Assembly: GCA_902592345.1 (NCBI GenBank)
Contig: CACJEE010000002.1
Coordinates: 37,749-101,748, forward strand
Origin: an uncultured Alphaproteobacteria bacterium
GTDB taxonomy: Bacteria > Pseudomonadota > Alphaproteobacteria > HIMB59 > GCA-002718135
Length of the DNA stretch: 64,000 bases
Direction of reading: 5' to 3'
Shown here piece after piece: positions 1-63,140 of this stretch (its first letter is position 1; each line of letters opens with the position of its first letter). A program made the translations under genes and the position numbers. The notes under the pieces were generated by a model. The model made no database searches, was not told where the DNA came from, and saw nothing but the letters and a program-made list of their open reading frames with translations.

Positions 1-3367
<3,367 letters not shown>

Positions 3368-3370
3368 TAA

Positions 3371-4486: not shown

Positions 4487-4510
4487 TAAACAAATATAAA
4501 TAAATTTATA

Positions 4511-7188: not shown

Positions 7189-7191
7189 AAA

Positions 7192-9838: not shown

Positions 9839-9879
9839 CTTATAATGTATTATCATTTAAGACCTTACTTATTATCACT

Positions 9880-10389: not shown

Positions 10390-10391
10390 TA

Positions 10392-45886: not shown

Positions 45887-46651
45887 ATGAAATTAAAAAA
45901 TAAAAATGTAATTATTACAGGTGGTGCTTCGGGGATAGGAAAAGCAACTGCAGAATTATTTTGTAATGAAGGCGCAAAAGTTGCGATCATGGATATTAAT
46001 AAAGCTGAGGGAGAAAAGACAGTTAGTCAAATTAATTCAAATAATGAAAAGGCATTTTTCTTTCACACTGATTTAAGAAAATCTAGTGAAGTCAAAAAAT
46101 CAATTAATCAAATTTTAGATTTATTTGGAACACTCAATATTTTGTTTAACCATGCAGGAACAATAATAGTTAAGCCACTTCATGAATCTTCTGAAGAAGA
46201 TTATGATTATTTGATGGATATTAACGTTAGATCAGCCTTTCTTGTTTGCAATGAAGTAATTCCCTCAATGTTAAAAAATAAAGGGGGAAATATAATTATT
46301 ACTTCATCAATTGGAGGAGAAAAAGGCTTTGCTTTAGAATCCTTATACTGCATGACGAAGGGGGCTGTTTTACAATTAGCTAGATCAATTGCTGTTGAAT
46401 ATAGAGATCAGGGAATTAGATGTAATGCAATCTGTCCAGGATTTGTTAAAACTAATCACGGATTGAGAGAAATAAAAGAATTAGATGAGCAAGGACAAAA
46501 TTGGGATGAAAAAGATTTGCATTCTGTTCAGGGAAGAATATGTAAACCAGAAGAGATTGCTTCTGCGGTTTTATACTTAGCGTCTGATGATTCTAGTTTT
46601 GTTAATGGAACTGCTTTGTATGTTGATAATGGTTGGTATGCTAAAGGATAA
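45887..46651 (+). CDS. Classical short-chain dehydrogenase/reductase
   Basis: TGGASGIGKA, NHAG, S...YCMTK. 3 nt upstream of the ABC ATPase. Confidence 0.9.
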   Translation: MKLKNKNVIITGGASGIGKATAELFCNEGAKVAIMDINKAEGEKTVSQINSNNEKAFFFHTDLRKSSEVKKSINQILDLFGTLNILFNHAGTIIVKPLHESSEEDYDYLMDINVRSAFLVCNEVIPSMLKNKGGNIIITSSIGGEKGFALESLYCMTKGAVLQLARSIAVEYRDQGIRCNAICPGFVKTNHGLREIKELDEQGQNWDEKDLHSVQGRICKPEEIASAVLYLASDDSSFVNGTALYVDNGWYAKG

Positions 46652-46654
46652 CAA

Positions 46655-47665
46655 ATGAGTCTCTCACCTAAACTTATTTGTAAAAATGTTTGGAAATTAT
46701 ATGGAGATAATCCAAAAGAATTTTTAAAAAGTCACAATAATAATCCTGATAAAGAAATAATAAAAAAAAGTGGTTACATTCAAGCAATTCGAAATGCCTC
46801 ATTAGAAGTTTATGAAAATGAAATTCTAGTAATAATGGGTCTAAGTGGTTCAGGAAAATCTACTTTGGTTAGATGTATGTCAAGATTAGTTGATCCTACA
46901 ATAGGAGAAATTTTTTTTGAAAATATTGATATGGGAAAGTTATCAAAAAATGAATTAATAGAAATTAGAAGACATAAAATGGGTATGGTGTTCCAACACT
47001 TTGCACTTTTTCCTCACCGAACTGTTATAGAAAATATTGCTTTTCCTTTAGAAGTTCAAGGGATCAAAAGAAAAGAAAGAGAAAAGTCTGCTTTAGAAAT
47101 AATTGATCTAGTAGGATTACAAGGAAGAGAGAATTATTTTCCAAAAGAACTTTCGGGAGGTCAACAACAAAGAGTTGGTATAGGTCGTTCATTAGCTGTT
47201 AAACCAGAGTTATGGTTTTTAGATGAACCATTTTCTGCCTTAGACCCACTAATAAGGAAAGAGATGCAAAATGAGTTTTTAAAAATTCAAAACTCACTTA
47301 AAAAAACTATTATTTTTATAACTCATGATTTTGATGAAGCGATTAAATTAGCAGATAGAATCATTATTATGAATGAAGGAAGAATAGTGCAAATTGGAAG
47401 CCCTGAAGATTTAATTATGAAGCCTGCAGATGATTATGTAAAAGAATTTACTGAAGACCTTCCAAGAGAGAGGTTGTTATCTGTAAAAAGTATAATGGAC
47501 ACTAAAAAAGAGCCTAATAATTCTTCAACAGTTTATGAGGATGAAAAAATATTTTCAATTCTTGAAAAAGTTCTCTCTGAGGGTTCTGTTTCAGTTCTTG
47601 ATAAATCAAATAATATTATTGGCTCACTTAATAAAGAAACAGTCTCAAAATTTATTAATAATTAA
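46655..47665 (+). CDS. proV: Glycine betaine/quaternary-amine type ABC ATPase
   Basis: GLSGSGKST, LSGGQQQR, WFLDEP. Short CBS-like C-terminus. Confidence 0.85.
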   Translation: MSLSPKLICKNVWKLYGDNPKEFLKSHNNNPDKEIIKKSGYIQAIRNASLEVYENEILVIMGLSGSGKSTLVRCMSRLVDPTIGEIFFENIDMGKLSKNELIEIRRHKMGMVFQHFALFPHRTVIENIAFPLEVQGIKRKEREKSALEIIDLVGLQGRENYFPKELSGGQQQRVGIGRSLAVKPELWFLDEPFSALDPLIRKEMQNEFLKIQNSLKKTIIFITHDFDEAIKLADRIIIMNEGRIVQIGSPEDLIMKPADDYVKEFTEDLPRERLLSVKSIMDTKKEPNNSSTVYEDEKIFSILEKVLSEGSVSVLDKSNNIIGSLNKETVSKFINN

Positions 47666-47727
47666 ATATTATATAAATAATCTTTATACTTTTATAAAAA
47701 AATCTAAGAGCTATTGTGCGTTTTTAG

Positions 47728-47753
47728 TAGTTTTATTTAATAGTTTTATTTAA
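47728..47753. repeat. Perfect tandem duplication of 13 bp (tagttttatttaa x2)
   Basis: Read directly in the 119-bp proV-proX spacer. Confidence 0.9.
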
Positions 47754-47784
47754 TATTTTGTAAAATTTATTACTGGGAGGTACA

Positions 47785-48732
47785 ATGAAAATTCTTAAAA
47801 ATAAATTTAATATATTATTAAGTTTTATTTTTATTCTATTTGCACAAAATATATATGCAGTAGAATCAAAAGATCCAATTAAGCTAACTTTGCATGATTG
47901 GACAGGTCAATTGATTACAACTAATATTATGGCTGAAGTTCTTAAGGAAGCAGGCTACAATATAGAACTTGTTCCGGCAGATTATATTGCACAATTTGCA
48001 GGTCTTCAGACAGGCGATCTTCATGTAGCAATGGAAATGTGGGAAACAACTGGTCGTGATGCAATCGATGAGTATACTGCTGACGGAAGAGTAGTCAATG
48101 TAGGTAGTACAGGAATGGATGCAATAGAAGAATGGTGGTATCCTTCTTACATGAAAGAAAAATGTCCTGGACTTCCAAATTGGGAAGCTCTTAATGATTG
48201 TGCAGAAGCTTTTTCTACACCTGAAACATCTCCAAAAGGAAGATATTTGGGTGGACCAGTAACTTGGGGTGGTTATGATGATGAACGTGTTGAAGCGCTT
48301 GAGTTAGATTGGGAAGTAATTCATGCAGGAACCGATGGTGCTCTTTTTGGTGAATTAGAGTCTGCTTATCAGAGAAAAGCTCCAATAATGTTATGGGTTT
48401 ATGCTCCTCATTGGGCTCCATCAAAGTATGATGGAGAATTTGTAGAATTTCCACCATACACGACTGAGTGTTATACAGATCCGTCTTGGGGTATAAATAA
48501 AAATGCTGCTTATGATTGTGGTAAACCGAGAGGTCCTATTTGGAAAGTTGCTTCAAGCATGCTTAAAGATAAATGGCCAGGTGCTTACGATGCAGTAGAA
48601 GCATTTACACTTGATAGTAATGAAATGGGAAATCTGGTTGCAGCTGTTGATCTTGATGGCAATACTGTAGAAGCTGTTGTCGCAGAATGGATGGCTAACA
48701 ATAAAGATAGATGGGGTACTTGGATAAAATAA
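47785..48732 (+). CDS. proX: Glycine betaine-type (OpuAC/ProX family) substrate-binding protein
   Basis: Signal peptide. LTLHDWTGQLITTNIMAEVLKEAGY and EMWETTG. Trp-rich. Confidence 0.85.
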   Translation: MKILKNKFNILLSFIFILFAQNIYAVESKDPIKLTLHDWTGQLITTNIMAEVLKEAGYNIELVPADYIAQFAGLQTGDLHVAMEMWETTGRDAIDEYTADGRVVNVGSTGMDAIEEWWYPSYMKEKCPGLPNWEALNDCAEAFSTPETSPKGRYLGGPVTWGGYDDERVEALELDWEVIHAGTDGALFGELESAYQRKAPIMLWVYAPHWAPSKYDGEFVEFPPYTTECYTDPSWGINKNAAYDCGKPRGPIWKVASSMLKDKWPGAYDAVEAFTLDSNEMGNLVAAVDLDGNTVEAVVAEWMANNKDRWGTWIK

Positions 48733-48753
48733 CCCTTTAATCTTAATTTTTTA

Positions 48754-48781
48754 GGGGGATTTATATCCCCCTTCTTATTTT
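48754..48781 (+). terminator. Intra-operon hairpin/terminator between proX and proW
   Basis: GGGGGAT-TTAT-ATCCCCC followed by TTCTTATTTT. Confidence 0.75.
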
Positions 48782-48786
48782 ACAAT

Positions 48787-50775
48787 ATGCAGAAAAAAAA
48801 ATTATCAAACAAAATTATTTTTATTTCTCTAACTGTCTTAACTTTTTTTTTGTATTGGTATGGCAAAGAAATAGCAAACTACTTAGATAGTAAATGGCTA
48901 GTAAAGTATCCAAAGCATTATTCATTTCCTTTTGCAATTTATACTTCAACATTTGTTAAATGGTTAATTAATGATGCTAATTTTTGGCTATTTACTTTTA
49001 ATGATCTTACTCGTTTCTTTGCTTGGATTATAGAACAGCCTTACAATATAGTTTTAGCTATATTTTCTAAAGGAATATTAAAAGGACAAGGTCAAGATGC
49101 GATCCAAATCATGGAACCATTAAGTTGGATTTCAGTTGTTGGTATTTTTTTTACCCTTGCGCTTTATACAAGAGATAAGTTTTTAATAATACTTGTTGTT
49201 CTATCAATAGTTTATTTGGCTGTATTTGATCAATGGCAAAGTTCAATGATTACATTATCTTCAATAATTATTGCTGTACCAATTGGAGTTGTTCTAGGAA
49301 TATTATTAGGAATATTATCCTACAAGTCGAAAATTTTAGAAAAAATTATAACTCCAATATTAGACCTAATGCAAACAGTCCCGGTCTTTGCTTACTTAGT
49401 TCCCATACTTGTAATGTTTGGTTTTGGGCCAGTTTCTGCATTAATTGCAACCATAATATATGCAATGCCACCAATGGTGAGAACTACCCTTTTAGCACTT
49501 AACAGTATTGATCCACAATTAAAAGAGAGTGGGCTCATGTCTGGTTGCACAGAAAGACAATTAATGTGGAAGGTTCTGATTCCAGTATCTAAACCAACTT
49601 TACTTATAGGCGTCAATCAAGTGATTATGCTATCACTTAATATGGTTATCATAGCTTCTATGATAGGCGCAGGGGGATTAGGTTACGACGTATTGGCCTC
49701 TCTTAGAAGATTAGATATTGGAGGAGGTATAGAGTCAGGTATAGCTATCGTAGTTATAGCAATAGCTTTAGATCGCTTGAGTCAATCATTTGCAAACTTA
49801 CCCACTCTCTCAAAAAAAACACAGAAAACTTTTTTTACTAAATATAAAAAAATAATTTTCTTAATTTTTTATATAATTGGAATTTATATATTAGGTAATT
49901 TTTTTACTTTTTTTAAATTATTCCCTGAAGAGTTAATGATTAATACTTCATTATTTTGGGAAGAACTAGTTAAATATATAAATATAAATTATTTTGATAA
50001 TCTAGAGAGTTTCAAAATAACTCTATTAACTTTTTTCATGCTTCCAATAAAAAAATTCTTTTTAGGAATTCCCTGGCCATGGTTTATTTTTATTATTACA
50101 ATTATTGGATGGTATTTTGGAAAGACTAAATTAGCATTACTTTGTTTAATGATGTCAATTTTTATAGTGACAACTGGTCTTTGGGAAAAAGCGATGATTA
50201 CACTTTATTTATGTGGTTCAAGTGTAATAATAGCATCTATTATAGGAATTCCTCTAGGGATATGGGCAGGCTTAAGCAGCAGGGCAAATAAAATATTAAC
50301 TGCTTTTATTGATACTCTTCAAACTTTACCAAGTTTTGTTTACTTGATACCTGTTGTAATGCTATTTCGTGTAGGTGACTTTACAGCAATGATTGCTGTT
50401 ATACTTTATGCACTTGCTCCTGCTGTTAGATATACAGCTCATGGAGTAAAAAATATTAATAATCAAATTGTGGAGGCAGCGTTAATAAGTGGATGTTCTC
50501 AAAGACAGTTATTATTTAAAATTAGATTACCTTTAGCCTTGCCAGAAATTTTACTAGGTATTAACCAAACTATAATGCTTGCTTTATCTATGTTAGTTAT
50601 TACTGCATTAGTTGGAACTAGAGATCTTGGTCAAGAAGTTTACATAGGTTTAACTAAAGCAGATATAGGAAGAGGTTTGGTTGCCGGACTATGTGTAGCT
50701 TTTATATCTATAATTGCAGATAGAATAATTAAAGCTGGAAGCAATAATCTTAAAAATAAATATGGAATCAAATAA
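48787..50775 (+). CDS. proW: Fused tandem-duplicated betaine-type ABC permease
   Basis: 662 aa. Two homologous halves, each with DxxQTxPxFVYLxP and an EAA-like loop (SGCTERQLMWKV / SGCSQRQLLFKI). Confidence 0.85.
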   Translation: MQKKKLSNKIIFISLTVLTFFLYWYGKEIANYLDSKWLVKYPKHYSFPFAIYTSTFVKWLINDANFWLFTFNDLTRFFAWIIEQPYNIVLAIFSKGILKGQGQDAIQIMEPLSWISVVGIFFTLALYTRDKFLIILVVLSIVYLAVFDQWQSSMITLSSIIIAVPIGVVLGILLGILSYKSKILEKIITPILDLMQTVPVFAYLVPILVMFGFGPVSALIATIIYAMPPMVRTTLLALNSIDPQLKESGLMSGCTERQLMWKVLIPVSKPTLLIGVNQVIMLSLNMVIIASMIGAGGLGYDVLASLRRLDIGGGIESGIAIVVIAIALDRLSQSFANLPTLSKKTQKTFFTKYKKIIFLIFYIIGIYILGNFFTFFKLFPEELMINTSLFWEELVKYININYFDNLESFKITLLTFFMLPIKKFFLGIPWPWFIFIITIIGWYFGKTKLALLCLMMSIFIVTTGLWEKAMITLYLCGSSVIIASIIGIPLGIWAGLSSRANKILTAFIDTLQTLPSFVYLIPVVMLFRVGDFTAMIAVILYALAPAVRYTAHGVKNINNQIVEAALISGCSQRQLLFKIRLPLALPEILLGINQTIMLALSMLVITALVGTRDLGQEVYIGLTKADIGRGLVAGLCVAFISIIADRIIKAGSNNLKNKYGIK

Positions 50776-50796
50776 ATATTACTTTATTTGATCAAT

Positions 50797-51894
50797 ATGG
50801 ATAAAAAGTTATTAACTCCCGGACCTCTTACTACTTCACTGAGCACTAAAGAGGCAATGCTTCATGATTGGGGATCACGTGATCAAAAATTCATCGATCT
50901 AAATCAATCTATTCGTGACTCATTAATTAAGTTAATTGATGGGGAAGGCAATTATCAATGTGTGCCTATGCAAGGAAGTGGAACATTTGCTGTTGAATCG
51001 ATGATTAGTTCACTAACACCAAAAGATGCTAACATTTTAATTTTAATTAATGGTGCTTACGGTCAACGAATGAAAAAAATGTGTGCGTACTTAAATAGAA
51101 ATATGATTGACTATGAAGTAGCTGAACATGAGCCTCATAATATGAGTAAATTAGAAGAGATTATTGATGCTAATAAGCAGCTTACTCACGTTTTTGCTGT
51201 TTATTGTGAAACTACATCAGGAATCCTAAACCCTATCAATGATATTGCTGATTTAGTTAAGAAAAAAAACTTATCTTTATTTATAGATGCGATGAGTGCC
51301 TTTGGTGCTCTTCCTCTTAGTAGTAAAGATATTACTTTTGATGCTGTTGCAGCTTCATCTAATAAATGTTTAGAGGGCGTTCCTGGTGTTGGATTTATTT
51401 TAATGAAAAATAATGTGATTGAAAAAGCAAAAGGGAACTGTCATTCATTAAGTTTGGATTTGTATGATCAATGGACAGCAATGGAGCAAAATAAACAATG
51501 GCGCTTTACACCACCTACACATGTATTAGCCGCATTCAATCAAGCAATTACTGAACATCAAAATGAAGGTGGAATTGAAGGGCGACACAAAAGATATAAA
51601 AATAATTGTAAAATCATATGTGATGGAATGAAAGAGATTGGCTTTGAACAACTCTTACCTGATGAGTTGCAAGCACCAATTATCATAACTTTTAAACAAC
51701 CAAGTGATCCAAACTTTAATTTTCAAAAATTTTACAATGCTCTTAGTGATAAAGATTTTCTAATTTATCCTGGAAAATTAACTGTCGCTGATACTTTTCG
51801 TATTGGATGTATTGGTAATTTAAATGAACAAGATATGAGAGATACACTTACAGCTGTTAAAGAGGTAATCAACGATTTAAAGATAAGTTTATGA
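50797..51894 (+). CDS. phnW: 2-aminoethylphosphonate-pyruvate transaminase
   Basis: Class V aminotransferase with PhnW-like N-terminus KLLTPGPLTTSLSTKEAMLHDWGSRD. ATG 50797 preferred over TTG 50788. Confidence 0.87.
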   Translation: MDKKLLTPGPLTTSLSTKEAMLHDWGSRDQKFIDLNQSIRDSLIKLIDGEGNYQCVPMQGSGTFAVESMISSLTPKDANILILINGAYGQRMKKMCAYLNRNMIDYEVAEHEPHNMSKLEEIIDANKQLTHVFAVYCETTSGILNPINDIADLVKKKNLSLFIDAMSAFGALPLSSKDITFDAVAASSNKCLEGVPGVGFILMKNNVIEKAKGNCHSLSLDLYDQWTAMEQNKQWRFTPPTHVLAAFNQAITEHQNEGGIEGRHKRYKNNCKIICDGMKEIGFEQLLPDELQAPIIITFKQPSDPNFNFQKFYNALSDKDFLIYPGKLTVADTFRIGCIGNLNEQDMRDTLTAVKEVINDLKISL

Positions 51895-52529
51895 GTAGTT
51901 CAGATGCGGTTGAAATTCCTTTAATTAAAGCTACCAATGAAGCACTTAAAGGGTATGGGTATTTAATCGACTCATATGAAAATAATGATATTGAAATTGT
52001 CACTTGGCCCAAACAGGGTTGGCGTGAAATTGATGAAGGTACAGGCAATGAAGGTGGGAGTACAGAGGGATCTTTCGATGCTTGGTGGGAAGGAAGTACA
52101 CTGTTCGGACAAAATAATGCTGTTCAACATAACAGCGACTATGAAGTAGACGGAAAATACATACTTGGTCATTCCTTACCCCCTGATAGTGAAGCTACAA
52201 CAAAATACATACCGCCAAAAAATATTTATATTTGGCATGTTAATTATCATCCTGATGGTGGACAGCTTTTTTATCCATCAACAAAAAGTCCTTTTATTTC
52301 ACCTTTAGCCTTACCAGGAGATGATGTGCAAGTTGGTGATTTTAAAGCTTTTTATTTTGATGGTTCGCAAGGGTTATACATTCATCCTAACATATGGCAT
52401 GAAGGAGTTTTCCCAATCGAAGAAAAATGCTCTTTTCAGGGTCGGCAAGGCAAAGTGCATGCAAGAGTGAGTATTGATTTACAAAAAGAATTTAAGAAAT
52501 ATATTTTTTTTAAAACTTCTTTAAAATAA
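51891..52529 (+). CDS. Cupin-fold protein, ureidoglycolate lyase (AllA)-like
   Basis: HPDGGQLFYP and NIWHEG motifs resemble the AllA family. ATGA overlap with the phnW stop. Confidence 0.55.
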   Translation: MSSSDAVEIPLIKATNEALKGYGYLIDSYENNDIEIVTWPKQGWREIDEGTGNEGGSTEGSFDAWWEGSTLFGQNNAVQHNSDYEVDGKYILGHSLPPDSEATTKYIPPKNIYIWHVNYHPDGGQLFYPSTKSPFISPLALPGDDVQVGDFKAFYFDGSQGLYIHPNIWHEGVFPIEEKCSFQGRQGKVHARVSIDLQKEFKKYIFFKTSLK

Positions 52530-52533
52530 ATAT

Positions 52534-53640
52534 TTATTTTTTTTCAATAACAAAAATTTCATTATTAAAATAAAGACCTTTGTTTTTAGTAACTATTTTT
52601 TGTACAACATCTTCGTAATTTTTAGATTTTTCCACTTTCATCACTTTATCATCATCTATTTGATTAACATAAATAGATGCATTCCAAGCTGAAAATATTA
52701 AAGAGGTTGCTATGCTCCCACTTAGTTCATTGGGTAAAGCTCTAAGCTTACATTTAATAATCTTTTTATCTTTAAAATTTAATTTAGCTAATAAATTTTT
52801 ATCTAAATTTTTTTTCAAATAGTGAATTATAGAATTGCTTAATGAAGGAAATGGATTTTCTTTTGGCCAGATTTTTTTTATAATTTTATTAGCTGGATCA
52901 TTCCCTGAGGCGTGAATAGTTAATAATTTCCCTTTAGGTTTTAGAGCATCAATCATAGGGCGTATGACATATTTTACTTTTTTTTCTGCTGAAATTCTTG
53001 ATCTATAAGGTTGTGAAGCAATTATTAGATCAAATTTATTTGCACCATTATTTATTCTGGGAATTAATTCATGCACATTAAATTCTTGATCTTCTCTATA
53101 TATAATCATTACTGATGGCTCTTTATAAGTTGGATTGCCATTTTTTTTATTAATTTCAATATTCCATTTTTTTTCTAAAAAAGAATTTTGACTTCTTAAT
53201 TGTTCTGCAAAATCAAGTGAGGTATCTCCTTTAAGCTTAACAACATGCCAATTAATCTTCTTCTGTTTTGTGGGATTATTAGATTTTAGATTTGCTGCTT
53301 CTGCATAATGCAGGTTTGATATAACAAATACTGTATTTTTGTGTTCAACAAATCTATCTGGTAATTTTTCTAAACCAAGTCTTACATCCTCTATACTAAT
53401 TTCCTTTGTAGAAACAAAAAGAGGTATATTTGGTTTTGCTTCATGACATTGTCTCATTACATTCATTAATAATGATCCGTCACCCATGCCTGCATCAAAT
53501 ATTTTAATGCCAGGTTTTGTTGGTTTAATTTTATTTATGTGAGGACGAATGAAATCAGCAATCTGATTTTTTTCATTAGTTGTTGTAACAAACAGCAAAT
53601 ATTTTTGCCTGTTATCATAAAATCTAAAATTTTTTTTCAT
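52534..53640 (-). CDS. Class I SAM-dependent methyltransferase-like protein, unknown substrate
   Basis: Motif I IFDAGMGDGS and an acidic post-I region. Last gene of the 55838->52534 operon. Confidence 0.6.
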   Translation of the reverse strand: MKKNFRFYDNRQKYLLFVTTTNEKNQIADFIRPHINKIKPTKPGIKIFDAGMGDGSLLMNVMRQCHEAKPNIPLFVSTKEISIEDVRLGLEKLPDRFVEHKNTVFVISNLHYAEAANLKSNNPTKQKKINWHVVKLKGDTSLDFAEQLRSQNSFLEKKWNIEINKKNGNPTYKEPSVMIIYREDQEFNVHELIPRINNGANKFDLIIASQPYRSRISAEKKVKYVIRPMIDALKPKGKLLTIHASGNDPANKIIKKIWPKENPFPSLSNSIIHYLKKNLDKNLLAKLNFKDKKIIKCKLRALPNELSGSIATSLIFSAWNASIYVNQIDDDKVMKVEKSKNYEDVVQKIVTKNKGLYFNNEIFVIEKK

Positions 53641-53641
53641 T

Positions 53642-54754
53642 CTAAAACAATCCCATTAGTTTAGCAGACGAGATAAAAGCATCTTTATTCCCAATAAAAT
53701 TTTTACCTCTTTCACCTAAGAAAGCATCATCTACAATATTATTCCACTCTTGAACAGGAACTTTTATTTCATTTAAGTTTAATGGAACTTCCAAAGAGCG
53801 CATAAATTCACTTAATTTTAAAGATGAATTTTCTAAATTATCATTAAAGATTAATTGTAATCTTTCTTCAGCAATTTTATCTATTCCAATCATGCTTCTA
53901 GTAACAATCGGAAGGGTAAATGAACAAGCAATACCATGTTGAATACCATAATTTAGAGTAATTGGATAAGACAAGTTATGAGCAATAGCAGTTTTAGTAT
54001 TTGAAAATGCTAATCCTGCATGCACACATGCACGCGCAATATTAGCACGTAATTCAATATTTTTTAAATCTTTTGCTAGTAATGGTAAATTTTCTAAAAC
54101 CAATTTTGATGCTTGAATTGCATGTGATGCTGAAACTGGATTAGCGTTAACATTCCATATACTCTCCATCGAGTGTGACAATGCATCTAAACCAGTTGAA
54201 ATTGTAAGACCAAGAGGTTTGTCAATCATAATTGACGGATCAATAATTGCTTTTTCTGCGTAAAGTGTTTTATGTGCTAAAGAAAGTTTGTTATTTTTTT
54301 CTTTATCCCAGATTGTAGCCCAACAAGTAAGTTCACTAGACGTGCCAGATGTCGTAGGAACAGCAATAATTTTAATAGGATTTTCAACTTTCGGATTTTT
54401 TTTATTTCTTACAAAATCAGTTAAGTATTCCTGTTTATCTCTAAAAGCAGCAATGGCTTTTGCTGTATCCGTTACAGAACCTCCACCAATAGCTAAAATA
54501 TAATCAACAGTTTTATCAATTGAGGCAAATTTATTTTGAAGTTCTAATATATCTTTATAGTCTGGGTTAGGTTGAACATCTGTCATAATAGACAGTGGTG
54601 GATTAGAGGAAGAACTCAATTCATCACTATATTTTTTAAAAATTTCTTCTGGGTGAGTAATAATTATATAGGATTTATTTTTAAGTGCTGAATGTACTTC
54701 TTTAAATTTATTTTCACCAAATATAATCTCTACCGGATTATAGTAACTCCACAT
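53642..54754 (-). CDS. Iron-containing alcohol dehydrogenase, phosphonate-associated type (putative phosphonoacetaldehyde reductase / 2-HEP dehydrogenase)
   Basis: MWSYYNPVEIIFG start, GGGSVTD, Fe-ADH His cluster (LSHSMES, AHNLSYP). Confidence 0.78.
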   Translation of the reverse strand: MWSYYNPVEIIFGENKFKEVHSALKNKSYIIITHPEEIFKKYSDELSSSSNPPLSIMTDVQPNPDYKDILELQNKFASIDKTVDYILAIGGGSVTDTAKAIAAFRDKQEYLTDFVRNKKNPKVENPIKIIAVPTTSGTSSELTCWATIWDKEKNNKLSLAHKTLYAEKAIIDPSIMIDKPLGLTISTGLDALSHSMESIWNVNANPVSASHAIQASKLVLENLPLLAKDLKNIELRANIARACVHAGLAFSNTKTAIAHNLSYPITLNYGIQHGIACSFTLPIVTRSMIGIDKIAEERLQLIFNDNLENSSLKLSEFMRSLEVPLNLNEIKVPVQEWNNIVDDAFLGERGKNFIGNKDAFISSAKLMGLF

Positions 54755-54758
54755 TTTG

Positions 54759-55838
54759 TTAAATTGATTTTGCAGCTTTTGACAAAATTGTCATTTTTTC
54801 AATTGCTTGCTCTCTTGTAAAGAATCCTAAACCACAATCTGGGGCAGCAATTAAACGATGCTCATCAATATGTTCTAAAGAGTCTTTCATTCGAGTTCTC
54901 ACTTCCTCTACAGACTCCATTCTGCTTTTAGCAATATCAATAAATCCAAAAATAACTTTTGTTTTTTTAAATTTTTCTAAAAGATTTAAATCATTATGTC
55001 TGTGAGAGTCTTCTAGAGATACTTCATCAATAGTAGAGTCATCAACTAAAGTAGCAATTCTATCATATGCATCTAAGTCTGCTTTTTTATATCCTTCAGA
55101 GTCAAGACAGTTTGGATAACCACAACAGATGTGACAAACCCTTTGCACATCTTTAGGGATTCCGTGCATCATTCTCTCTAAGTTCTCCATGCCATATGTA
55201 TTAGCTTCTTCTGGTTTTCTTGCAAAAACCGGTTCATCAATTTGAATATATTTACAACCAGCATCAACGAGTGCTTTTATTTCTTCGTTTAGAGCTAATG
55301 CTAAATCAAAACCCAGTTTTTTAAGATCATCATAATAGTTGTTTGCAATTGAGTCGGTTATTGTCATAGGACCAGGAAGAGTAATCTTTACCGGATTTTT
55401 AGTAAATTGTTGAGCGCTTTTCCAGTCTAATGGCATGCGTATCTCTTTACTTGAAACTGGACCAATTATTGTTGGAACACTTGCTTCAAAAGCTCCTTGT
55501 CTTACTGACTTATGAGTTACTTCTTCAAAGCTTATATTATTTAGAAAACGACATTGGTGAAAAACATAACTTTCTCTTCTTACTTCCCCATCTGTTGGTA
55601 TATCAATACCGGCATTAACTTGATCTATTATAACTTCTTTAATTGCATCTAAAAATAAGTTTTCTACATCATCACCAGCTTTCTCTATTGCTTTTTCGTA
55701 GGCACCAGGTGACCAATTTGCCAATAATCCTTTAGCAGCTTTTTTTTCTTCTTCAGATTTAGTACCTAAAAACCAATCATTAATAGGAGTATTTTTTGGT
55801 TTTGGATAAGCGCCGATGGTAGTTGTAATTAGAGGCAT
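54759..55838 (-). CDS. Core MetE-like (cobalamin-independent methionine synthase C-terminal domain) zinc methyltransferase
   Basis: 359 aa single (beta/alpha)8 domain. Zinc-ligand pattern CHICC ... LED ... PDCGL is intact. Confidence 0.78.
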   Translation of the reverse strand: MPLITTTIGAYPKPKNTPINDWFLGTKSEEEKKAAKGLLANWSPGAYEKAIEKAGDDVENLFLDAIKEVIIDQVNAGIDIPTDGEVRRESYVFHQCRFLNNISFEEVTHKSVRQGAFEASVPTIIGPVSSKEIRMPLDWKSAQQFTKNPVKITLPGPMTITDSIANNYYDDLKKLGFDLALALNEEIKALVDAGCKYIQIDEPVFARKPEEANTYGMENLERMMHGIPKDVQRVCHICCGYPNCLDSEGYKKADLDAYDRIATLVDDSTIDEVSLEDSHRHNDLNLLEKFKKTKVIFGFIDIAKSRMESVEEVRTRMKDSLEHIDEHRLIAAPDCGLGFFTREQAIEKMTILSKAAKSI

Positions 55839-55862: not shown

Positions 55863-55893
55863 AAATAAAACAGCGGCTTTTATAAAGCCGCTG
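55863..55893 (-). terminator. Strong hairpin + U-tract between the SBP gene and the MetE-like gene
   Basis: Minus strand: CAGCGGCTTT-ATA-AAAGCCGCTG followed by TTTTATTT. Confidence 0.8.
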
Positions 55894-55924
55894 CAATAAA
55901 ATGTTAATAATTAATCAATCTTTT

Positions 55925-57178
55925 TTATAAAAGATCGTTTATTTCTTCCATCATCTCTTCTTGAAGATCGCCCATATCATCAGCACTACCAGTAGCAATT
56001 TCCTCAGTGTAATCATAGATTACTTGAGTGATTGCTAGTCCGTTTTCACCAGGATATGCAAACCAATCTGCTAAGAGTGGAAGTTGATCAACTGCAGTAA
56101 GTTTATTTGGATTTGCACTATAGAAATCACCTAATAAATCATTAGCTGCTTTGTTTGGTGGAACATAACCAGTAGTTTCAGCAACTAATGCTGCGCCAAT
56201 ACCTGAAGTAATAAACTTCAAGAATGTCCAAGCCGCGTCTACTCTTGCAGGATCATCAGATGTAGAAGTTAGCATTGCTGCATTTCCACCTGCTGGTAAT
56301 CTTGCTGGAGTTCCATTATTTACACCTGCCATTCCAGGGAATGGAGCTGTCTTAAGGACGAAATCTGCTTTTGCTGCATTTACTGAACCTAAACTTGAAG
56401 TTGACCAGAACATCATACCAATAGTGCCTGCATTAAATGCAGCTTGACCATCAGCAATTGAATAGTTAGGCATATTACATCCGCTCATAATATCATGCAT
56501 TTGTTGTAAAGTTGCTAAACCAGCATCTCCGCCTAAGTTAACTTTTCCATCTTCAACAATTTTAACATTTTGAGTATGCATTAATGCTTGGTGGAACCAG
56601 TTACCTGTAATGTTCCAACCGAAATATAAAGTTCCACTTCCAGCTGCTTCTAATTTTCCACAAGCATCAATAACTTCATCCCAGTTAGTTGGAATGCTAT
56701 CTATGCCTGCTGCAGCTAATAAATCCATGTTATAGTATCCTACAGGAGTTGATACAGAAAATGGTAAACCATAAACCTCTCCTCCAAATGTTGAAAGACT
56801 TAACATTGCAGAATGGTAACCGTCTTTTTCAAAATCAGCTTCTTTTGCAATGAATGGTTCTAAAGATTTTGCAATACCTTTATCTACTAGAGGAGCTTGT
56901 CTGTTAAGACCCTGCATTGTAACATCAGGTAGATTACCAGAAGTTGCTTCTCTTAAAATTGTAGCAGTTGCATCTTCATAGTTTTCGTAAGTTGCTCTAA
57001 ACTTTACTTGAATATCTGGATGTGCTTTTTCAAACTCTGGCATAATAGCTTGATAAGTAACATCAAATAAACCTGAGTAAGGATAAGCTACTTCTATTTC
57101 TATAGACTTCGCTGAATTAACTGAACCATAAAAACCAAAAGCTAATATGGCTGCTAATCCTGTAATTAATTTTTTCAT
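55925..57178 (-). CDS. Family-1 (CUT1, UgpB/sugar-type) ABC substrate-binding protein
   Basis: Signal peptide MKKLITGLAAILAFGFYGSVNSA, 417 aa, strong GGAGG RBS. Confidence 0.8.
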   Translation of the reverse strand: MKKLITGLAAILAFGFYGSVNSAKSIEIEVAYPYSGLFDVTYQAIMPEFEKAHPDIQVKFRATYENYEDATATILREATSGNLPDVTMQGLNRQAPLVDKGIAKSLEPFIAKEADFEKDGYHSAMLSLSTFGGEVYGLPFSVSTPVGYYNMDLLAAAGIDSIPTNWDEVIDACGKLEAAGSGTLYFGWNITGNWFHQALMHTQNVKIVEDGKVNLGGDAGLATLQQMHDIMSGCNMPNYSIADGQAAFNAGTIGMMFWSTSSLGSVNAAKADFVLKTAPFPGMAGVNNGTPARLPAGGNAAMLTSTSDDPARVDAAWTFLKFITSGIGAALVAETTGYVPPNKAANDLLGDFYSANPNKLTAVDQLPLLADWFAYPGENGLAITQVIYDYTEEIATGSADDMGDLQEEMMEEINDLL

Positions 57179-57318: not shown

Positions 57319-58758
57319 TTACCAAGGTAGGGAGAAAGTCTTCACATTAGTAAAGCTCTTCATCGCCTCAATAACACCCTCTTTGTATCCCAATCCCGAG
57401 TCTTTAATTCCCCCAAAAGGAGACATTTCAATTCTATATCCAGGTACTTCCCAAATATTGACAGTTCCAACATTTAAGTTTTGAATATATTTTTTTGCTC
57501 TCATAAAATTATTAGTGCACACGCCTGAAGATAATCCAAAAGCAGTTGAATTTGAGATCTTGATGACAGATTCATCATCATTGGGAACGCGTATAATTGG
57601 AATAACAGGTCCAAAAGTTTCTTCCAATACTAATTCACTTTTAGGATCAACATTATCAATTACTATAGGAGGCAATAACGCCCCTTTTCTTCCAGGATGA
57701 TATAAAATTTTCGCACCATCTGCTTCTGCCATAGAAACTCTTTTATCAAATAGTTCAGCTGCTTGAGCATTAACAACGGTACCTAAATCAGTTTCCATGC
57801 TCATTGGATCTCCAAACTTAATTTTTTTAGCTCTTTCCAAAGCCATTTCAACAAACTGATCAGCAATTTTTTCTTGAACAAGAATTCTTTTAACTGCAGT
57901 ACAGCGTTGTCCTGAATTTTTTGTTGCACCAGTTACTGCTAATTCAACAGCTTTCTTTAAATCATCTGAATCTAAATCATTTAAAACAATTAGGGGATCA
58001 TTTCCGCCAAGTTCAAGAACAGTTCTTTTGTATCCTGCCTGTTCAGCAATTAGTTTTCCAACACCAACACTTCCCGTAAAAGTAATAAGATCAATATTGG
58101 GATTTTTTATCATTTCTGAACCGATATCTTGTGGCCATCCTGTAACAACAGAAAACATTTCTGGTGGTAGACCAGCTTCATACAAAACATCCGCAAGAAC
58201 CATTGCTGTTAATGGAGTTAACTCTGTCTGTTTGCAAACTGTACAATTATTCGTTGCAATAGAAGGTGCAATTTTGTGAGCCACCATATTTAAAGGGTGA
58301 TTAAATGGTGTTATTGCCGAAATAGCTGTTAATGGTTCTCTTATTGTAAATATCTTTCTAGCTTTACCGTGTGGAGTTAAATCACATGAAAAAATTTCTC
58401 CATCATCATATATACACAATTGTGCTGTTAAAGAAAAAACATCAAATGCTCTGCCGACTTCATACAATGAGTCTTGTTTTGAAATTCCAAGTTCTAAGGT
58501 AATAATATCAGAAATCTCTTCTTTTCTCTTTACAAGTACTTCAGCTGCAGTTTGAAGTATTTTTTGTCTTTCATATCGTGTAAGCTTTGATTGATAATTT
58601 GCTGCAATTTCAAGGGCCTGTCTTGCATGTTCAGCATTTCCTGCAGGAACCGTACCAATGACTTCACCCGTAAAAGGATACTCAACATCAATTGTTTTTT
58701 CAAAAGTTACTTTTTTGCCAGCAATTCGCATAGCTTCATTAATCATTTTCTTTTCCAT
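57319..58758 (-). CDS. phnY: Aldehyde dehydrogenase, phosphonoacetaldehyde dehydrogenase-like
   Basis: ALDH motifs ELGGNDP and catalytic Cys in GQRCTA. TAATG overlap with phnA. Confidence 0.8.
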
Positions 58759-59999
58759 TACAGAGCTCCATTAATTGCATAGTAGAATGCATCATAATTA
58801 TATAACTGTTTTTCATTATTGTAATTTTGTATTTTTAGATTTGATATAAAAGGCACTTCTCGCTCATGCAAACCACCATGAGAACGTAAAGGTTCATTTA
58901 ATCCAGAAAGATTATGTTTATCTTCCGATGATCCAATGGTCATAAATTCTGAGGACATACATATTATATCACCCATTCGATCAGGTGGTAGATTGTATGT
59001 ATTGCAACCTTCGTCTTTGGTTAACACTACCTCTATATCCTTAATTTCTTTAATTGATTTTATAACGTCATTAACTTTAGTTTTATCTTCAAGATAAATT
59101 GTTGCAAATGAACCTAATGATCCATGATGAACAACATAAGGATCAGTTATTGGTAAAATAACTTTTACTACATTTGGTTCAAATTTTTTATCCAGATAGT
59201 CTTGTAAAAAAATTGCATTGGGTGAACCATCGTCTTTTGATTTAGGTTTCATACCATGATCAGCCGTAATAATTATTGATACATCACCCTTATTTAAAAG
59301 GCCAATATATTTATCAAACATAGCATAAAACTTATTAGCCACTTCATTTCCTGGTGCATACTTATGTTGAATATAATCTGTTGTAGATAAGTACATTATA
59401 TTTGGTTTAAATTCCTCAAGTAGTTTTACTCCAGCTGCCATGACAAATTCGGAAAGACCTTGAGAGTATACTTCCGGTACAGGCATTCCTAACCATTCAT
59501 TAACATTATCAATACCATTATGTTCTTTTGTTGCCTGATCAGATTTTTCCGCCGAAAAACATATTGCTCGATTATCATCAAATCCTAAACCATTTCCCAA
59601 AAGAGTTCTAAGTTTATCTTTTGCAGTAACAAGAGCAATCTTTGATCCAGAATTATAAAATTTTTCAAATATTGTTGGCGCACGCATATATTTTGGATCA
59701 TTCATCATTACTTCTTCCCCTGTTTCAGGAGTGTAAAAGAAATTACCACATATGCCGTGAACAGAGCTAGGTTGCCCTGTTACAATTGATATATTATTTG
59801 GATTTGTAAAACTTGGGATAGCACTATGAACAAGTAAACTTTGTCCATTAGAAATTAATGCATCAATATTAGGTGTAAGATTTAGTTTTGATGCCTCTTC
59901 AAGATACTCTTTTTGGCTTCCATCAAGACAAATAACTATAGCTGTCTTAGAAAATGTGCTTGGATATTCTCTGTTATTAATTACTAAATTTTCAGACAC
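58758..59999 (-). CDS. phnA: Phosphonoacetate hydrolase
   Basis: Alkaline-phosphatase superfamily. Long collinear identity to Pseudomonas PhnA as recalled: [59 protein letters not shown]. Confidence 0.92.
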
Positions 60000-60164: not shown

Positions 60165-61298
60165 ATGGGCACAATATCACTTAAAAATATTTCAAAATCA
60201 TTTGGATCTACCCAGGTATTAAAAGATCTAAACGTAGATATAATAGAAGGTGAATTTTTAACATTAGTTGGTCCATCTGGTTGTGGCAAATCTACCTTAC
60301 TTCGAATTATAGCAGGTCTTGAGCAACAAACTTCTGGTGATGTTTTAATTGATAATAAAAATGTAAACAGAATTAGAGCTAGTGAAAGAGACCTAGCAAT
60401 GGTGTTTCAGTCTTATGCTCTGTATCCTCATCTCACAGTAAGAAGAAATTTAGAAACCCCTCTTAGACTTAGAGATTATAGTACATTTGAAAGATTACCT
60501 TTAATTGGAAATTTGTCTCCAAATAAGAAACAAAAAACAGAATCTATAAATCAATTAGTCAGTAAAACTTCTGAGACACTTAAAATCTCTGAGCTACTTG
60601 ATAGAAAGCCAGGTCAACTATCTGGTGGTCAAAGACAGAGAGTAGCTCTTGGTAGAGCAATGGTGAGAGAGCCTGTTGCATTTTTGATGGATGAGCCTCT
60701 GTCAAATTTAGATGCGGCACTTAGAGTTCATATGAGATCAGAGTTATCAGAGCTTCACAATTCTCTTAAAACTACATTTGTTTATGTAACACATGATCAA
60801 GCTGAAGCATTAACAATGTCTTCTCGTATGGCTGTTATGATTGATGGAAATTTATTACAGCTTGATACCCCTCAAGAGGTATATGATAACCCTTCATCGC
60901 TAAGTGTGGCTCAATTTGTAGGAAGTCCTAAAATTAATATTTTTAAAGGTTCATCAGATTCAAATGGAACTGTAAGCCTACTAAATCTCACCTTAAAAAG
61001 AAAAAGTTCAGAATCAAATCTAGAGCTAAATATTGGTATTAGACCTGAACATTTAGAAATTACAAATCAAAGTGATGAAAATACTTTTAGTGCAACAGTT
61101 TCTTATAGAGAGAATTTAGGGTCAGATATTTTCTTTCATGTAAATACAGAAGATGGAATGAATAGAATAATTGTTAGAGGTATACCGCAATTAACACATG
61201 AGATTTCTAGTGGTTCAAAAGTAAACATTAGAAGAGTTTCTAATAAAGCTTTATTATTTAATAAAGAAGGAAAAAGGGTTCAATTTAATAATGCATAA
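60165..61298 (+). CDS. CUT1 ABC ATPase (UgpC/MalK-like)
   Basis: GPSGCGKST, LSGGQRQR, FLMDEP, C-terminal TOBE-like domain. Confidence 0.88.
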   Translation: MGTISLKNISKSFGSTQVLKDLNVDIIEGEFLTLVGPSGCGKSTLLRIIAGLEQQTSGDVLIDNKNVNRIRASERDLAMVFQSYALYPHLTVRRNLETPLRLRDYSTFERLPLIGNLSPNKKQKTESINQLVSKTSETLKISELLDRKPGQLSGGQRQRVALGRAMVREPVAFLMDEPLSNLDAALRVHMRSELSELHNSLKTTFVYVTHDQAEALTMSSRMAVMIDGNLLQLDTPQEVYDNPSSLSVAQFVGSPKINIFKGSSDSNGTVSLLNLTLKRKSSESNLELNIGIRPEHLEITNQSDENTFSATVSYRENLGSDIFFHVNTEDGMNRIIVRGIPQLTHEISSGSKVNIRRVSNKALLFNKEGKRVQFNNA

Positions 61299-62247
61299 TT
61301 CTAAAGCACATATTTGGTTTATTGCGCCTGCAATAATATTAATGATTATTATATTAATTTTTCCTTTATTTCTTGCAGGTGGAATTTCTTTTACTGATTA
61401 TAATTTAGGTAATAAATCTCTTGAATGGATAGGACTTGAAAATTATGAAAAAATGTTTTCAAGAAAAACATATGTAAAAATGATTTGGGCTACGGCAACT
61501 TATGTAATTGTTGTAGTTCCTATCTCCGTTGTACTTGGTTTGTGTGCTGCTATGCTCTTAAATTCACTTAGGTTTGGAGCTGATATTTATAAAACAATTT
61601 TCTTTCTTCCTGTTATGGCGACTCTTCTTGCTATGGCCATTGCATGGGAATTCACTCTTCACCCAACACTTGGTATAGTAAATAGTTTTTTAGCTAATGG
61701 TTGCGGAGGTGTAAGAGAATTTATTCTTGGTTTTCATTGGTTACCATGGGTTGACTCACAACAAAGCTGGTATCACGTAGCATGTGCAAATAATATGGAT
61801 TTTCCTTATTGGCTGAAGCAAAAAAATACAGCAATTTGGACAATATGTTTTATAGGAATTTGGCAAGCATTTGGTTTTAATATGGTTTTATATTTAGCAG
61901 GCCTTACAGGTATACCTCGAGAATTATATCACGCAGCAGAAATGGATGGTGCTAAATCAACCTGGGAACAATTTAAACTTGTAACTTGGCCAATGCTTGG
62001 ACCCACAACTTTGTTTGTAGTAACAATTACAACAATTAGAACATTTCAAGTTTTTGATACAATTGAAATACTTACTAAGGGTGGCCCATCTAAAACTACC
62101 TACGTTATGATGTATGCAATTTTTGAAAAAGCTATCCAACAAAACTTAACGAGTATAGGAGCGGCTATTACTGTTGTCTTTATTGGTTTCATATTGATAT
62201 TAACTTTTTTCCAGAGATATATCATTGAGAAGAGGGTTCATTATTAA
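61291..62247 (+). CDS. CUT1 ABC permease (UgpA-like)
   Basis: 6 TM, EAA loop AAEMDGAKSTWEQFKLVTWPML. Confidence 0.82.
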   Translation: MHNSKAHIWFIAPAIILMIIILIFPLFLAGGISFTDYNLGNKSLEWIGLENYEKMFSRKTYVKMIWATATYVIVVVPISVVLGLCAAMLLNSLRFGADIYKTIFFLPVMATLLAMAIAWEFTLHPTLGIVNSFLANGCGGVREFILGFHWLPWVDSQQSWYHVACANNMDFPYWLKQKNTAIWTICFIGIWQAFGFNMVLYLAGLTGIPRELYHAAEMDGAKSTWEQFKLVTWPMLGPTTLFVVTITTIRTFQVFDTIEILTKGGPSKTTYVMMYAIFEKAIQQNLTSIGAAITVVFIGFILILTFFQRYIIEKRVHY

Positions 62248-63140
62248 TGCAAGCTAAACAATATATTGGTGAAAGTTGGAAACATGGCATTTTAATAATT
62301 GGAGCAATCCTTGTTTTACTTCCATTTTATATGATGGTTTCAATGTCACTAAAATCTCAACAAGAGATTCAATCAATTTCTGGAGGTTTAATAGGAGCGC
62401 AAGAAGTTCAAACATTTCCAGTTTGTGTCAAAACTGGTTATTCCGAAGAAACATGTACGACAAAGCCTTATATTTATAATTACTGGTTTGCTTTTGAAAA
62501 AGCCCCTATTCCTAGATACTTAATGAATGGAGTTATAGTAACTTTATCAATTTTTATAATTCAAGTTCTTGTCGCCTTACCTTGTGCTTATGCGCTTGCC
62601 AAACTTCGGTTTTATGGACGGGAATTTGTATTTTCTATGGTATTATTTTGTCTTCTAATACCAGTGCACGGCATTGCACTTCCTCTTTATGTAATGCTAG
62701 CCCAGGCCGGGCTCGTTGATACCTATTCCGCCTTAATACTCCCCTGGACAATATCTGTATTTGGCATTTTTCTGATGCGGCAATTTTTTATGACAGTTCC
62801 AGATGAATTAATTGACGCCGCCAGAATGGACGGCATGGGAGAATATTCTATAGTTTGGAAAGTAATGTTGCCAACTGCAATACCTGCCTTGCTTGCCTTT
62901 GCAATATTCTCAGTTGTAGCCCATTGGAATGATTATTTCTGGCCACGTATGGTTATAACTGGCAATAGAGATCTATTTACTCCGCCTCTTGGAATTAGAG
63001 AATTTAGAGGTGGAATAGATAGTGATGAATTTGGACCAATGATGGCATCAATTGTTACTGTCACAGTTCCTTTAATTGTTGCGTTCATAATTGCACAAAA
63101 AAGATTTATTGAAGGAATTACGCTAACAGGGATGAAGTAA
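62247..63140 (+). CDS. CUT1 ABC permease (UgpE-like)
   Basis: 6 TM, EAA loop AARMDGMGEYSIVWKVMLP. Confidence 0.82.
   Translation: MQAKQYIGESWKHGILIIGAILVLLPFYMMVSMSLKSQQEIQSISGGLIGAQEVQTFPVCVKTGYSEETCTTKPYIYNYWFAFEKAPIPRYLMNGVIVTLSIFIIQVLVALPCAYALAKLRFYGREFVFSMVLFCLLIPVHGIALPLYVMLAQAGLVDTYSALILPWTISVFGIFLMRQFFMTVPDELIDAARMDGMGEYSIVWKVMLPTAIPALLAFAIFSVVAHWNDYFWPRMVITGNRDLFTPPLGIREFRGGIDSDEFGPMMASIVTVTVPLIVAFIIAQKRFIEGITLTGMK

Follow-up and report, generated by a model that had tools for sequence, protein, structure and literature searches.

What are a methionine-synthase-like protein, an alcohol dehydrogenase and a methyltransferase doing at the end of an operon for phosphonate breakdown? The question is raised by a stretch of 64,000 nucleotides from an uncultured alphaproteobacterium (assembly GCA_902592345.1, contig CACJEE010000002.1, positions 37,749 to 101,748; the whole stretch is hereafter the window), which has a GC content of about 30% and its closest relatives among SAR11/Pelagibacterales single-cell genomes. 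Here three open reading frames (ORFs) follow each other head to tail on the minus strand, encoding a MetE-like protein of 359 amino acids (aa; 54759-55838), an iron alcohol dehydrogenase of 370 aa (ADH; 53642-54754) and a methyltransferase-like protein of 368 aa (MTase; 52534-53640), with gaps of 4 nt between the first two (TAA-CAAA-ATG) and of 1 nt between the last two (TAG-A-ATG). Each protein has hundreds to thousands of homologues, so the genes are real. An original prediction, made from the sequence alone, had taken the trio for a unit within a phosphonate island and was borne out in part: the gaps and the features of the proteins are confirmed by ORFs, motifs and profile scores, and the absence of phosphoenolpyruvate (PEP) mutase and the role proposed for the ADH also stand, whereas the obligate nature of the trio, its link to a betaine-type importer and the phosphonate specificity of the MTase do not.

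The answer that we favour, tentatively and at somewhat less than an even chance, is a composite one, in which the trio is the 3' end of a scavenging string in a flexible island of SAR11, comprising phnA, phnY and the gene for a substrate-binding protein (SBP) followed by the MetE-like, ADH and MTase genes, and in which the trio falls into three modules. The ADH would make phosphonoacetaldehyde, which PhnY would oxidise to phosphonoacetate and PhnA hydrolyse to acetate and phosphate, the gene content being observed and the activity of the ADH presumed from its family and context. The MetE-like protein would work with a Ugp-like ATP-binding cassette (ABC) importer and not with one of betaine type, activating homocysteine on zinc, and the methyl or other small alkyl group would come straight from the organophosphorus solute that the importer delivers, because no methyl-carrier partner (folate domain, corrinoid protein or MesX) accompanies it. 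The putative donor is probably a methylated or esterified solute of the 2-hydroxyethylphosphonate (HEP) type, candidates being a hydroxyethylphosphonate capped by a methyl ester or in some other way, and a phosphonate of onium type; the dealkylated product would enter the ADH/PhnY/PhnA route, and methionine would be a useful by-product for a sulfur-auxotrophic cell. The MTase, as the co-transcribed last gene, would provide an S-adenosylmethionine (SAM)-dependent small-molecule methyltransferase.

That the parts are separable is apparent from 80 SAR11 loci carrying the MTase gene, which were classed by the genes upstream of it, phosphonate genes being sought within 10 kb. The full order PhnA-PhnY-SBP-MetE-like-ADH-MTase is found in 56 of the 80 (single-cell genomes), PhnA-PhnY-MTase in ten and PhnA-PhnY-ADH-MTase in two (L016 and L061, both with PhnY-ADH), while five have the MTase with no phosphonate gene within range, and a further seven have upstream sequence too short for classing. 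The MTase is the constant last gene of these strings. The existence of PhnA-PhnY-ADH-MTase loci means that the ADH is able to stand alone with PhnA and PhnY. By its distribution, the MetE-like gene is a companion of the Ugp-like importer: a UgpC-like ATPase gene is present in 53 of the 56 trio loci, and all 12 loci with PhnY but without the MetE-like gene lack it. The trio thus comprises three separable modules rather than the indivisible unit that had been predicted, since SAR11 loci show the MTase alone, the ADH with the MTase, or all three. In the comparison of synteny in other genomes, which the original prediction had itself proposed, a phosphonate or phosphorus context recurs, and the MTase also occurs in the five SAR11 loci without phosphonate genes. 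There it ends a string of metY (encoding O-acetylhomoserine sulfhydrylase), an alpha-beta-hydrolase gene and the MTase gene, situated between rplM-rpsI and ctaA.

The ADH is the module that can be most closely connected with known enzymes. It matches PF00465 and PF25137, with the motifs GGGS at 90, DxxxH at 190 and Hx13H at 245, and its best curated match, over the full length, is the phosphonate-associated iron alcohol dehydrogenase family TIGR03405 (365.7 bits, under the cutoff of 423.7; the next family reaches 160 bits). Upstream on the same strand lie the genes for two proteins that both score above their cutoffs, the phosphonoacetaldehyde dehydrogenase PhnY (57319-58758; TIGR03250, 792 bits, cutoff 636) and the phosphonoacetate hydrolase PhnA, which opens the operon (58758-59999; TIGR02335, 468 bits, cutoff 408), an arrangement that fits the predicted feeding of HEP into the PhnY/PhnA route. 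From family and context, the ADH is probably a PhpC-type HEP dehydrogenase converting HEP to phosphonoacetaldehyde. The PEP-mutase (PepM) motif EDKx5NS is absent from all six frames of the window, and the family is not seen in the Pfam scans of its ORFs, among the 25 commonest of the 61 matched families. A biosynthetic cluster was rejected, neither PEP mutase nor another biosynthetic hallmark having been found.

The original prediction held that none of this was a described pathway, which no longer applies to the ADH: PhpC-type pf00465 enzymes in degradative clusters, which typically carry phnY-phnA or phnX and no PEP mutase, have been characterised as oxidising HEP to phosphonoacetaldehyde, and PbfG, of the unrelated pf00107 class, performs the same oxidation (Piazza et al. 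2026, PMC13576164). The window agrees with these clusters in combining a phosphonate-associated pf00465 ADH with phnY, phnA and transporter genes, without PEP mutase, and two of the SAR11 loci consist of exactly PhnA-PhnY-ADH. It differs in that phnW is adjacent and the ADH lies under the TIGR03405 cutoff, and in the presence of the MetE-like protein, the Ugp-like importer and the MTase, none of which is mentioned in the main text of that paper. By family and gene order, the ADH/PhnY/PhnA core is probably a new member of this known, recently described pathway.

The MetE-like protein has a single Meth_synt_2 domain (PF01717, E 1.2e-33), Meth_synt_1 giving merely a 69-residue match (E 0.0024). 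Its zinc-site motifs are CHICCGY (235-241), SLEDSHRH (274-281) and PDCGLG (333-338), and the ligands His236, Cys238, Glu276 and Cys335 are invariant among 20 orthologues; the contacts with homocysteine made in MetE and MesD are also kept, in DGE at 83-85 (Glu85), IDEP at 200-203 (Asp201) and Tyr241. With its predicted barrel and these His, Cys, Glu and Cys ligands, the protein is placed in the core-MetE/Meth_synt_2 superfamily, and it is probably a homocysteine S-alkyl- or methyltransferase. With two-domain MetE it has in common the catalytic C-terminal barrel and zinc site but not the N-terminal folate-binding domain, and the corresponding model, TIGR01371, gives 86 bits against a cutoff of 930. 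Among solved structures, the closest is the MesD protein 3RPD from Shewanella, with which it shares the single domain, the His-Cys-Glu-Cys zinc site, the Glu and Asp contacts with homocysteine and the MesD-specific Tyr in HxCxGY. Membership of MesD is defined by a score of 390 bits or more to ACIAD3523, and the enzyme needs MesX (Price et al. 2021, PMC7857596). In comparison, the MetE-like protein scores 160 bits at 34% identity, measured to 3RPD and not to ACIAD3523 itself, and so falls outside MesD; in place of a MesX (DUF1852) neighbour it has an ABC importer as partner, and the carboxylate-binding Ser of MesD is Ala in most members of its clade. Relative to MesD, the clade also has extra invariant basic residues by the active site, in EVRRE, FARKP, SHRHND and an Arg after PDCGLGxxx, which suggests that an anionic donor would suit it. 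On sequence grounds, we assign the protein to a previously undescribed clade of core-MetE; in the literature, we found no MetE-like gene reported in phosphonate clusters.

The proposed chemistry, in which zinc-activated homocysteine is methylated directly by a small imported solute to give methionine, would be the same as that of the betaine-homocysteine methyltransferase (BHMT) of SAR11, but BHMT belongs to an unrelated family (PF02574) with another gene context, and the S-methyl_trans domain PF02574 has no match in any of the three trio proteins in Pfam or NCBIfam. As to the corrinoid-dependent core synthases MesA, MesB and MesC, the curated archaeal models PRK04326, PRK00957, PRK01207 and PRK08575 all give scores under their cutoffs. 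No corrinoid protein is encoded in the island, and neither MesX nor a corrinoid-protein partner is found among the neighbours of MetE-like genes where these were scanned.

The partner of the MetE-like protein appears to be an importer. Immediately upstream lies the gene for a UgpB-like periplasmic SBP of the CUT1 family (417 aa; 55925-57178, minus strand; PF13416/PF01547), which matches the UgpB model at E 3.8e-17, far under its cutoff, and in the PDB finds solely distant sugar and glycerol-3-phosphate binders. Divergent from PhnA are the genes for a UgpC/UgpA/UgpE-like ATPase and two permeases (60165-63140, plus strand; Pfam ABC_tran with TOBE_2, and BPD_transp_1), which belong with this SBP. 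Between the SBP and MetE-like genes is a terminator-like hairpin (55870-55894, minus strand; 11-bp stem with 6 GC, followed by a T-run), which probably attenuates transcription past a highly expressed SBP gene. In four marine metatranscriptomes the SBP gene is 10-30 times deeper than neighbouring or downstream genes, its word depth reaching several hundred where that of its neighbours is 0-35, these values being assembler contig depths, which are a poor measure of expression and show presence only. The same data also include the MetE-like, MTase, PhnY and PhnA genes, and one contig spans the gap between the SBP and MetE-like genes.

This association extends well beyond SAR11. Orthologues of the MetE-like protein at 50-70% identity are widespread, relatives occurring in at least 583 genomes, and the order UgpC-UgpA-UgpE-SBP-MetE-like is kept in gammaproteobacterial metagenome-assembled genomes (MAGs), Thiotrichales, Chromatiales, SAR324, Hyphomicrobiaceae and Methyloligellaceae, often with a divergent LysR regulator. 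The proteins of this colinear string are 57-69% identical to those of the window; UgpC, UgpA and UgpE are colinear with the SBP and MetE-like proteins in loci L086-L091, L094, L096, L098, L133, L164 and L166, and SBP homologues adjoining MetE-like genes in the non-SAR11 loci are 60-65% identical. Genes for phosphorus acquisition recur in the vicinity: the pair PhoU_div-PHO4 in L087, L164, L092 and a Nitrospira locus (L151), true PhnA in L087 (518 bits) and L144 (564 bits), PhnC/PhnE in L087, an ABC importer of the 2-aminoethylphosphonate (AEP) type in L088 and L091, and PhnW in L151. An exception is one Hyphomicrobiales locus, which has a tripartite ATP-independent periplasmic (TRAP) transporter; a PhpC-type ADH and a PhnD-type ABC system lie 6 kb away from it. 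Most telling are the zinc alcohol dehydrogenases of PbfG type that accompany the module in three gammaproteobacterial loci. One is directly upstream of the MetE-like gene, at 42 nt, in L165 (TIGR03366, 295 bits; next family 114 bits), and the others are beside PhnA in L087 (TIGR03366, 289 bits) and in L091 (76% identical, by tblastn). Two unrelated classes of HEP dehydrogenase thus adjoin the module, which is the strongest sign that the importer and the MetE-like protein belong to catabolism of the hydroxyethylphosphonate type. Since L087 has a PhnCDE-type importer of its own, the Ugp-like system is suggested to import something besides free HEP.

A hint of what this might be comes from phosphodiesterases. 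In Hyphomicrobiales a Metallophos phosphodiesterase gene lies between the SBP and MetE-like genes, in L096 followed by an NPP-family enzyme. In 66 of the 80 SAR11 loci a calcineurin-like metallophosphoesterase of 262 aa is encoded directly after the MTase, between it and a cupin gene (for example, L012 11112-11900, minus strand), and is 30-34% identical to the Hyphomicrobiales enzyme; it is absent from the window, where the stop codons of the MTase and cupin genes are 4 nt apart (52529/52534). The phosphodiesterases flanking MetE-like genes in Hyphomicrobiales, together with the homologue in SAR11, point to an ester as the imported form.

The MTase, in turn, finds no match in Pfam or NCBIfam. 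It has a motif I, DAGMGDG, at 49-55 and KEIS at 79-82, and with its AlphaFold2 model (pLDDT 75.8) the Foldseek matches in the PDB are solely class I SAM methyltransferases, with a probability of 1.0 to many, led by histamine N-methyltransferase, SABATH methyltransferases, cyclopropane-fatty-acid synthase and BioC. With histamine N-methyltransferase, the SABATH enzymes and BioC the predicted fold and motif I agree, but TM-scores are just 0.4-0.6, identities are 8-14% and there is no family-level sequence match. On this model the protein is a putative class I SAM-dependent small-molecule methyltransferase. The phosphonate O-methyltransferase DhpI has no entry among the top 50 Foldseek matches, and we claim no specific similarity to it; an arsenite methyltransferase of ArsM type was rejected, the cysteines not being conserved across the family. 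This family comprises 802 clusters at 50% identity, of which ten were sampled, every name given being 'hypothetical'. A search with an alignment of six sequences of distant homologues places it in no fewer than 578 genomes, which belong to Gamma-, Beta- and Alphaproteobacteria and Actinomycetota.

A gene for a single-domain, core-MetE-like Meth_synt_2 protein is within 10 kb of the MTase in 22 of 80 non-SAR11 loci, and metY is near an MTase homologue in six. The gene order in Woeseiaceae and in one gammaproteobacterial MAG runs from core-MetE (followed by a glyoxalase-family gene in L196, where the span is 7026-11113) through a divergent Meth_synt_2 to the MTase; in L213 (6274-11182) a PaaK-like adenylating enzyme is encoded directly upstream of this string, and in L179 (262-5325) the PaaK-like, the two Meth_synt_2 and the MTase genes are differently ordered. 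This cluster constitutes an undescribed system, which may reveal the role of the MTase family. In Methyloligellaceae, an MTase homologue of 42% identity is encoded just upstream of a LysR-Ugp-SBP-Metallophos-MetE-like cluster. The link of the MTase family with MetE-like proteins is recurrent and real but not phosphonate-specific, as the original prediction would have it, the MTase standing behind metY in SAR11 and beside core-MetE paralogues in other phyla; because its neighbours elsewhere are MetY and core-MetE paralogues, we tie it to the homocysteine/methionine/SAM cycle and not to phosphonates as such. The metY/alpha-beta-hydrolase pair upstream of the MTase is 95-99% identical across SAR11 genomes (L073-L080; for example, L074 7846-11110), and the genes flanking the cassette (rplM, rpsI, argC and hom) are merely 63-73% identical, a disparity which suggests that the cassette was recently exchanged within SAR11.

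Several observations weigh against the composite reading, in addition to the nature of the depth values given above. Among natural compounds, we know of no methylated derivative of HEP that could be the donor. The ADH and the PbfG-like proteins may act on a HEP analogue, for the ADH a related hydroxyalkylphosphonate, because both score below their family cutoffs. The MTase and the MetE-like protein are not obligate partners, since there are phnA-phnY operons that have the first but lack the second. The orthologues in L081 (Magnetovibrio) and L097 have no phosphorus genes or importer nearby, the neighbours in L081 being solely housekeeping genes. A subgroup at about 52% identity is found in an operon with an agmatinase-like enzyme, a PotD-type ABC system and a CoA-acylating methylmalonate-semialdehyde dehydrogenase (L159 4140-13086; also L154), and with so different a context the donor is likely to differ between subgroups. 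Two further candidates were set aside: methylphosphonate as direct methyl donor, on chemical grounds, the carbon of its C-P bond having no usable leaving group, and, at the Magnetovibrio orthologue, a system like 2-ketopropyl-coenzyme M oxidoreductase/carboxylase (2-KPCC), the adjoining glutathione reductase and succinate-semialdehyde dehydrogenase being housekeeping enzymes.

The different context of this subgroup suggests that the MetE-like clade handles different imported solutes in different lineages. There is also a broader formulation, which we regard as a rather unlikely but serious contender: the clade as a whole would be a new class of importer-wired solute:homocysteine S-methyltransferases, of which one subgroup, in SAR11 and several further marine lineages, would strip a methyl cap from an imported organophosphonate or phosphonate ester, with the MTase as a partner in the SAM cycle.

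It is unlikely, though not by a great deal more so, that the MetE-like protein is a plain cobalamin- and folate-independent methionine synthase using an intracellular donor, borne on the island, and perhaps induced by phosphate stress, to keep up the supply of methionine and SAM, with no direct role in phosphonate breakdown. The conserved zinc ligands and homocysteine-binding residues of MetE and MesD would be expected of such an enzyme, some orthologues, as in L081, do reside in housekeeping contexts, and SAR11 are reported to lack MetE, MetH and MtgBCDE, with the function of core-MetE in aerobic marine bacteria an open question (Mausz et al. 2025, PMC12478193). Yet the gene ends ABC-importer operons in at least five lineages, beside genes for phosphorus scavenging, and lacks a corrinoid or MesX-like partner where neighbours were scanned. 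The protein is, moreover, below the cutoff of every curated methionine-synthase model in NCBIfam (the best being NF006589, 199 bits against 392), and a core-MetE homologue of Phaeobacter failed to rescue methionine auxotrophy (PMC12478193).

Two alternatives that invoke a BHMT-like reaction appear improbable, and to about the same degree. In the model of the original prediction, the MetE-like protein, possibly with the MTase, demethylates N-methylated AEP onto homocysteine in the manner of BHMT, a betaine-type importer supplying the substrate and PhnW receiving the AEP. PhnW, an OpuA-type importer and a TmpB/PhnZ-like HD oxygenase are indeed all encoded in the window, and by general BHMT chemistry the quaternary N-trimethyl-AEP would be an acceptable donor to a zinc thiolate. 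Tertiary and secondary amines, however, are poor donors once the first methyl group has been removed, and the island encodes no amine oxidase. The conserved partner is the CUT1 Ugp-like importer, with its 53 of 56 trio loci, whereas an Opu-type, or betaine-type, SBP or importer accompanies the trio in just one of those 56 besides the window and in none of the non-SAR11 loci, and the company that the MetE-like protein keeps with two unrelated families of HEP-type ADH would be left unexplained.

In the other, a Ugp-like system imports glycerophosphocholine or a similar diester, a phosphodiesterase frees the phosphorus moiety, an ADH and an aldehyde dehydrogenase convert choline to betaine, and the MetE-like protein acts as an analogue of BHMT. 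The Metallophos and NPP phosphodiesterases flanking MetE-like genes in Hyphomicrobiales, with a homologue in most SAR11 islands, would find a use here, as would the aldehyde dehydrogenase resembling betaine aldehyde dehydrogenase (BADH) that recurs beside the module in five loci (L087, L089, L092, L093 and L094), and type III iron alcohol dehydrogenases include the choline dehydrogenase GbsB. The profile scores tell otherwise: the SAR11 ADH reaches 366 bits on the phosphonate-type model against 126 on that of GbsB, the zinc alcohol dehydrogenases score about 290 bits with the phosphonate-associated model and about 110 with the next family, and the aldehyde dehydrogenase adjoining in SAR11 is a true PhnY. 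SAR11 are, besides, reported to own a BHMT already (PMC12478193). As for the addition of a zinc-activated thiol to an epoxide or vinyl phosphonate, giving a beta-hydroxy thioether for the ADH to oxidise, we think it very improbable, for although epoxyalkane:coenzyme M transferase is a single-domain MetE homologue with dehydrogenases next in its pathway, and an ADH gene comes directly after the MetE-like gene in SAR11 and before it in L165, the island encodes no thioether-cleaving enzyme and we know of no marine substrate of this kind.

To return to the composite reading, the scavenging string is embedded in a wider phosphorus island. Converging on the trio from the plus strand (50788-52529) are the genes for the AEP-pyruvate transaminase PhnW (NF010006, 521 bits, cutoff 296), which is a second feeder into phosphonoacetaldehyde, and for a cupin-like protein of 212 aa (51891-52529; a weak ureidoglycolate-lyase match, PF04115, E 5.7e-11). 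The pair is conserved in SAR11 loci, where the cupin gene is always downstream of PhnW. Further along the island are an OpuA-type ABC importer, a short-chain dehydrogenase/reductase (SDR), a PhnZ/TmpB-like HD oxygenase, an AEP-type ABC importer, a phosphatase, PHO4 and PhoU_div. The HD oxygenase (45170-45727, minus strand) is divergent (TIGR03276, 207 bits against a cutoff of 215), and no 2-oxoglutarate dioxygenase of PhnY*/TmpA type is visible in the window; the cupin might provide the hydroxylation step that is otherwise missing. The genes for the SDR and the OpuA-type, that is, betaine-type, importer (45887-50775, plus strand) are inserted between those for PhnW and the HD oxygenase, an insertion that, of all the SAR11 loci examined, the window and L067 alone possess, and this block looks like a separate and rare addition to the island. 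The PhoU_div-PHO4 pair is flanked by a SET-domain protein and a dual-specificity phosphatase of protein tyrosine phosphatase type (37116-37601 and 39725-40252, both minus strand), and the phosphatase keeps the same position in SAR11 loci.

The remainder of the window encodes housekeeping functions (dnaA, dnaN, recF, nusA and infB, among others). Because recF, dnaN and dnaA are found at 2279-5905 (minus strand), the window adjoins the chromosomal replication origin, the phosphorus island starting about 30 kb from these genes. A search for RNA elements, at gathering thresholds and, in intergenic regions, at E up to 1, gave, for the window, L074, L098, L179 and L165, no riboswitch or other known element bearing on control by SAM or methionine, the SAR11 locus L074 containing an IMES-2 motif (162.9 bits; 1497-1637, plus strand) unrelated to the trio. 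In the promoter scan, sites were no more numerous than in shuffled sequence.

No heterotrophs in the sea are more abundant than SAR11, and both the MTase family and the clade of importer-linked MetE-like proteins are so far undescribed. A zinc MetE-like protein encoded in the phosphonate island of 56 of 80 SAR11 loci, with a binding protein prominent in marine metatranscriptomes, could mean an overlooked route to methionine, or else a new preparatory step that gives PhnY and PhnA access to a further pool of dissolved organic phosphorus, and the ADH alone would extend the newly described HEP catabolic route to these organisms. For the core-MetE homologues in general, the importer-linked clade offers a concrete handle, with a binding protein for a ligand screen and an enzyme for an assay. 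If the broader formulation is true, the scavenging of phosphorus would be directly linked to the making of methionine in organisms whose only methionine synthase is thought to be BHMT.

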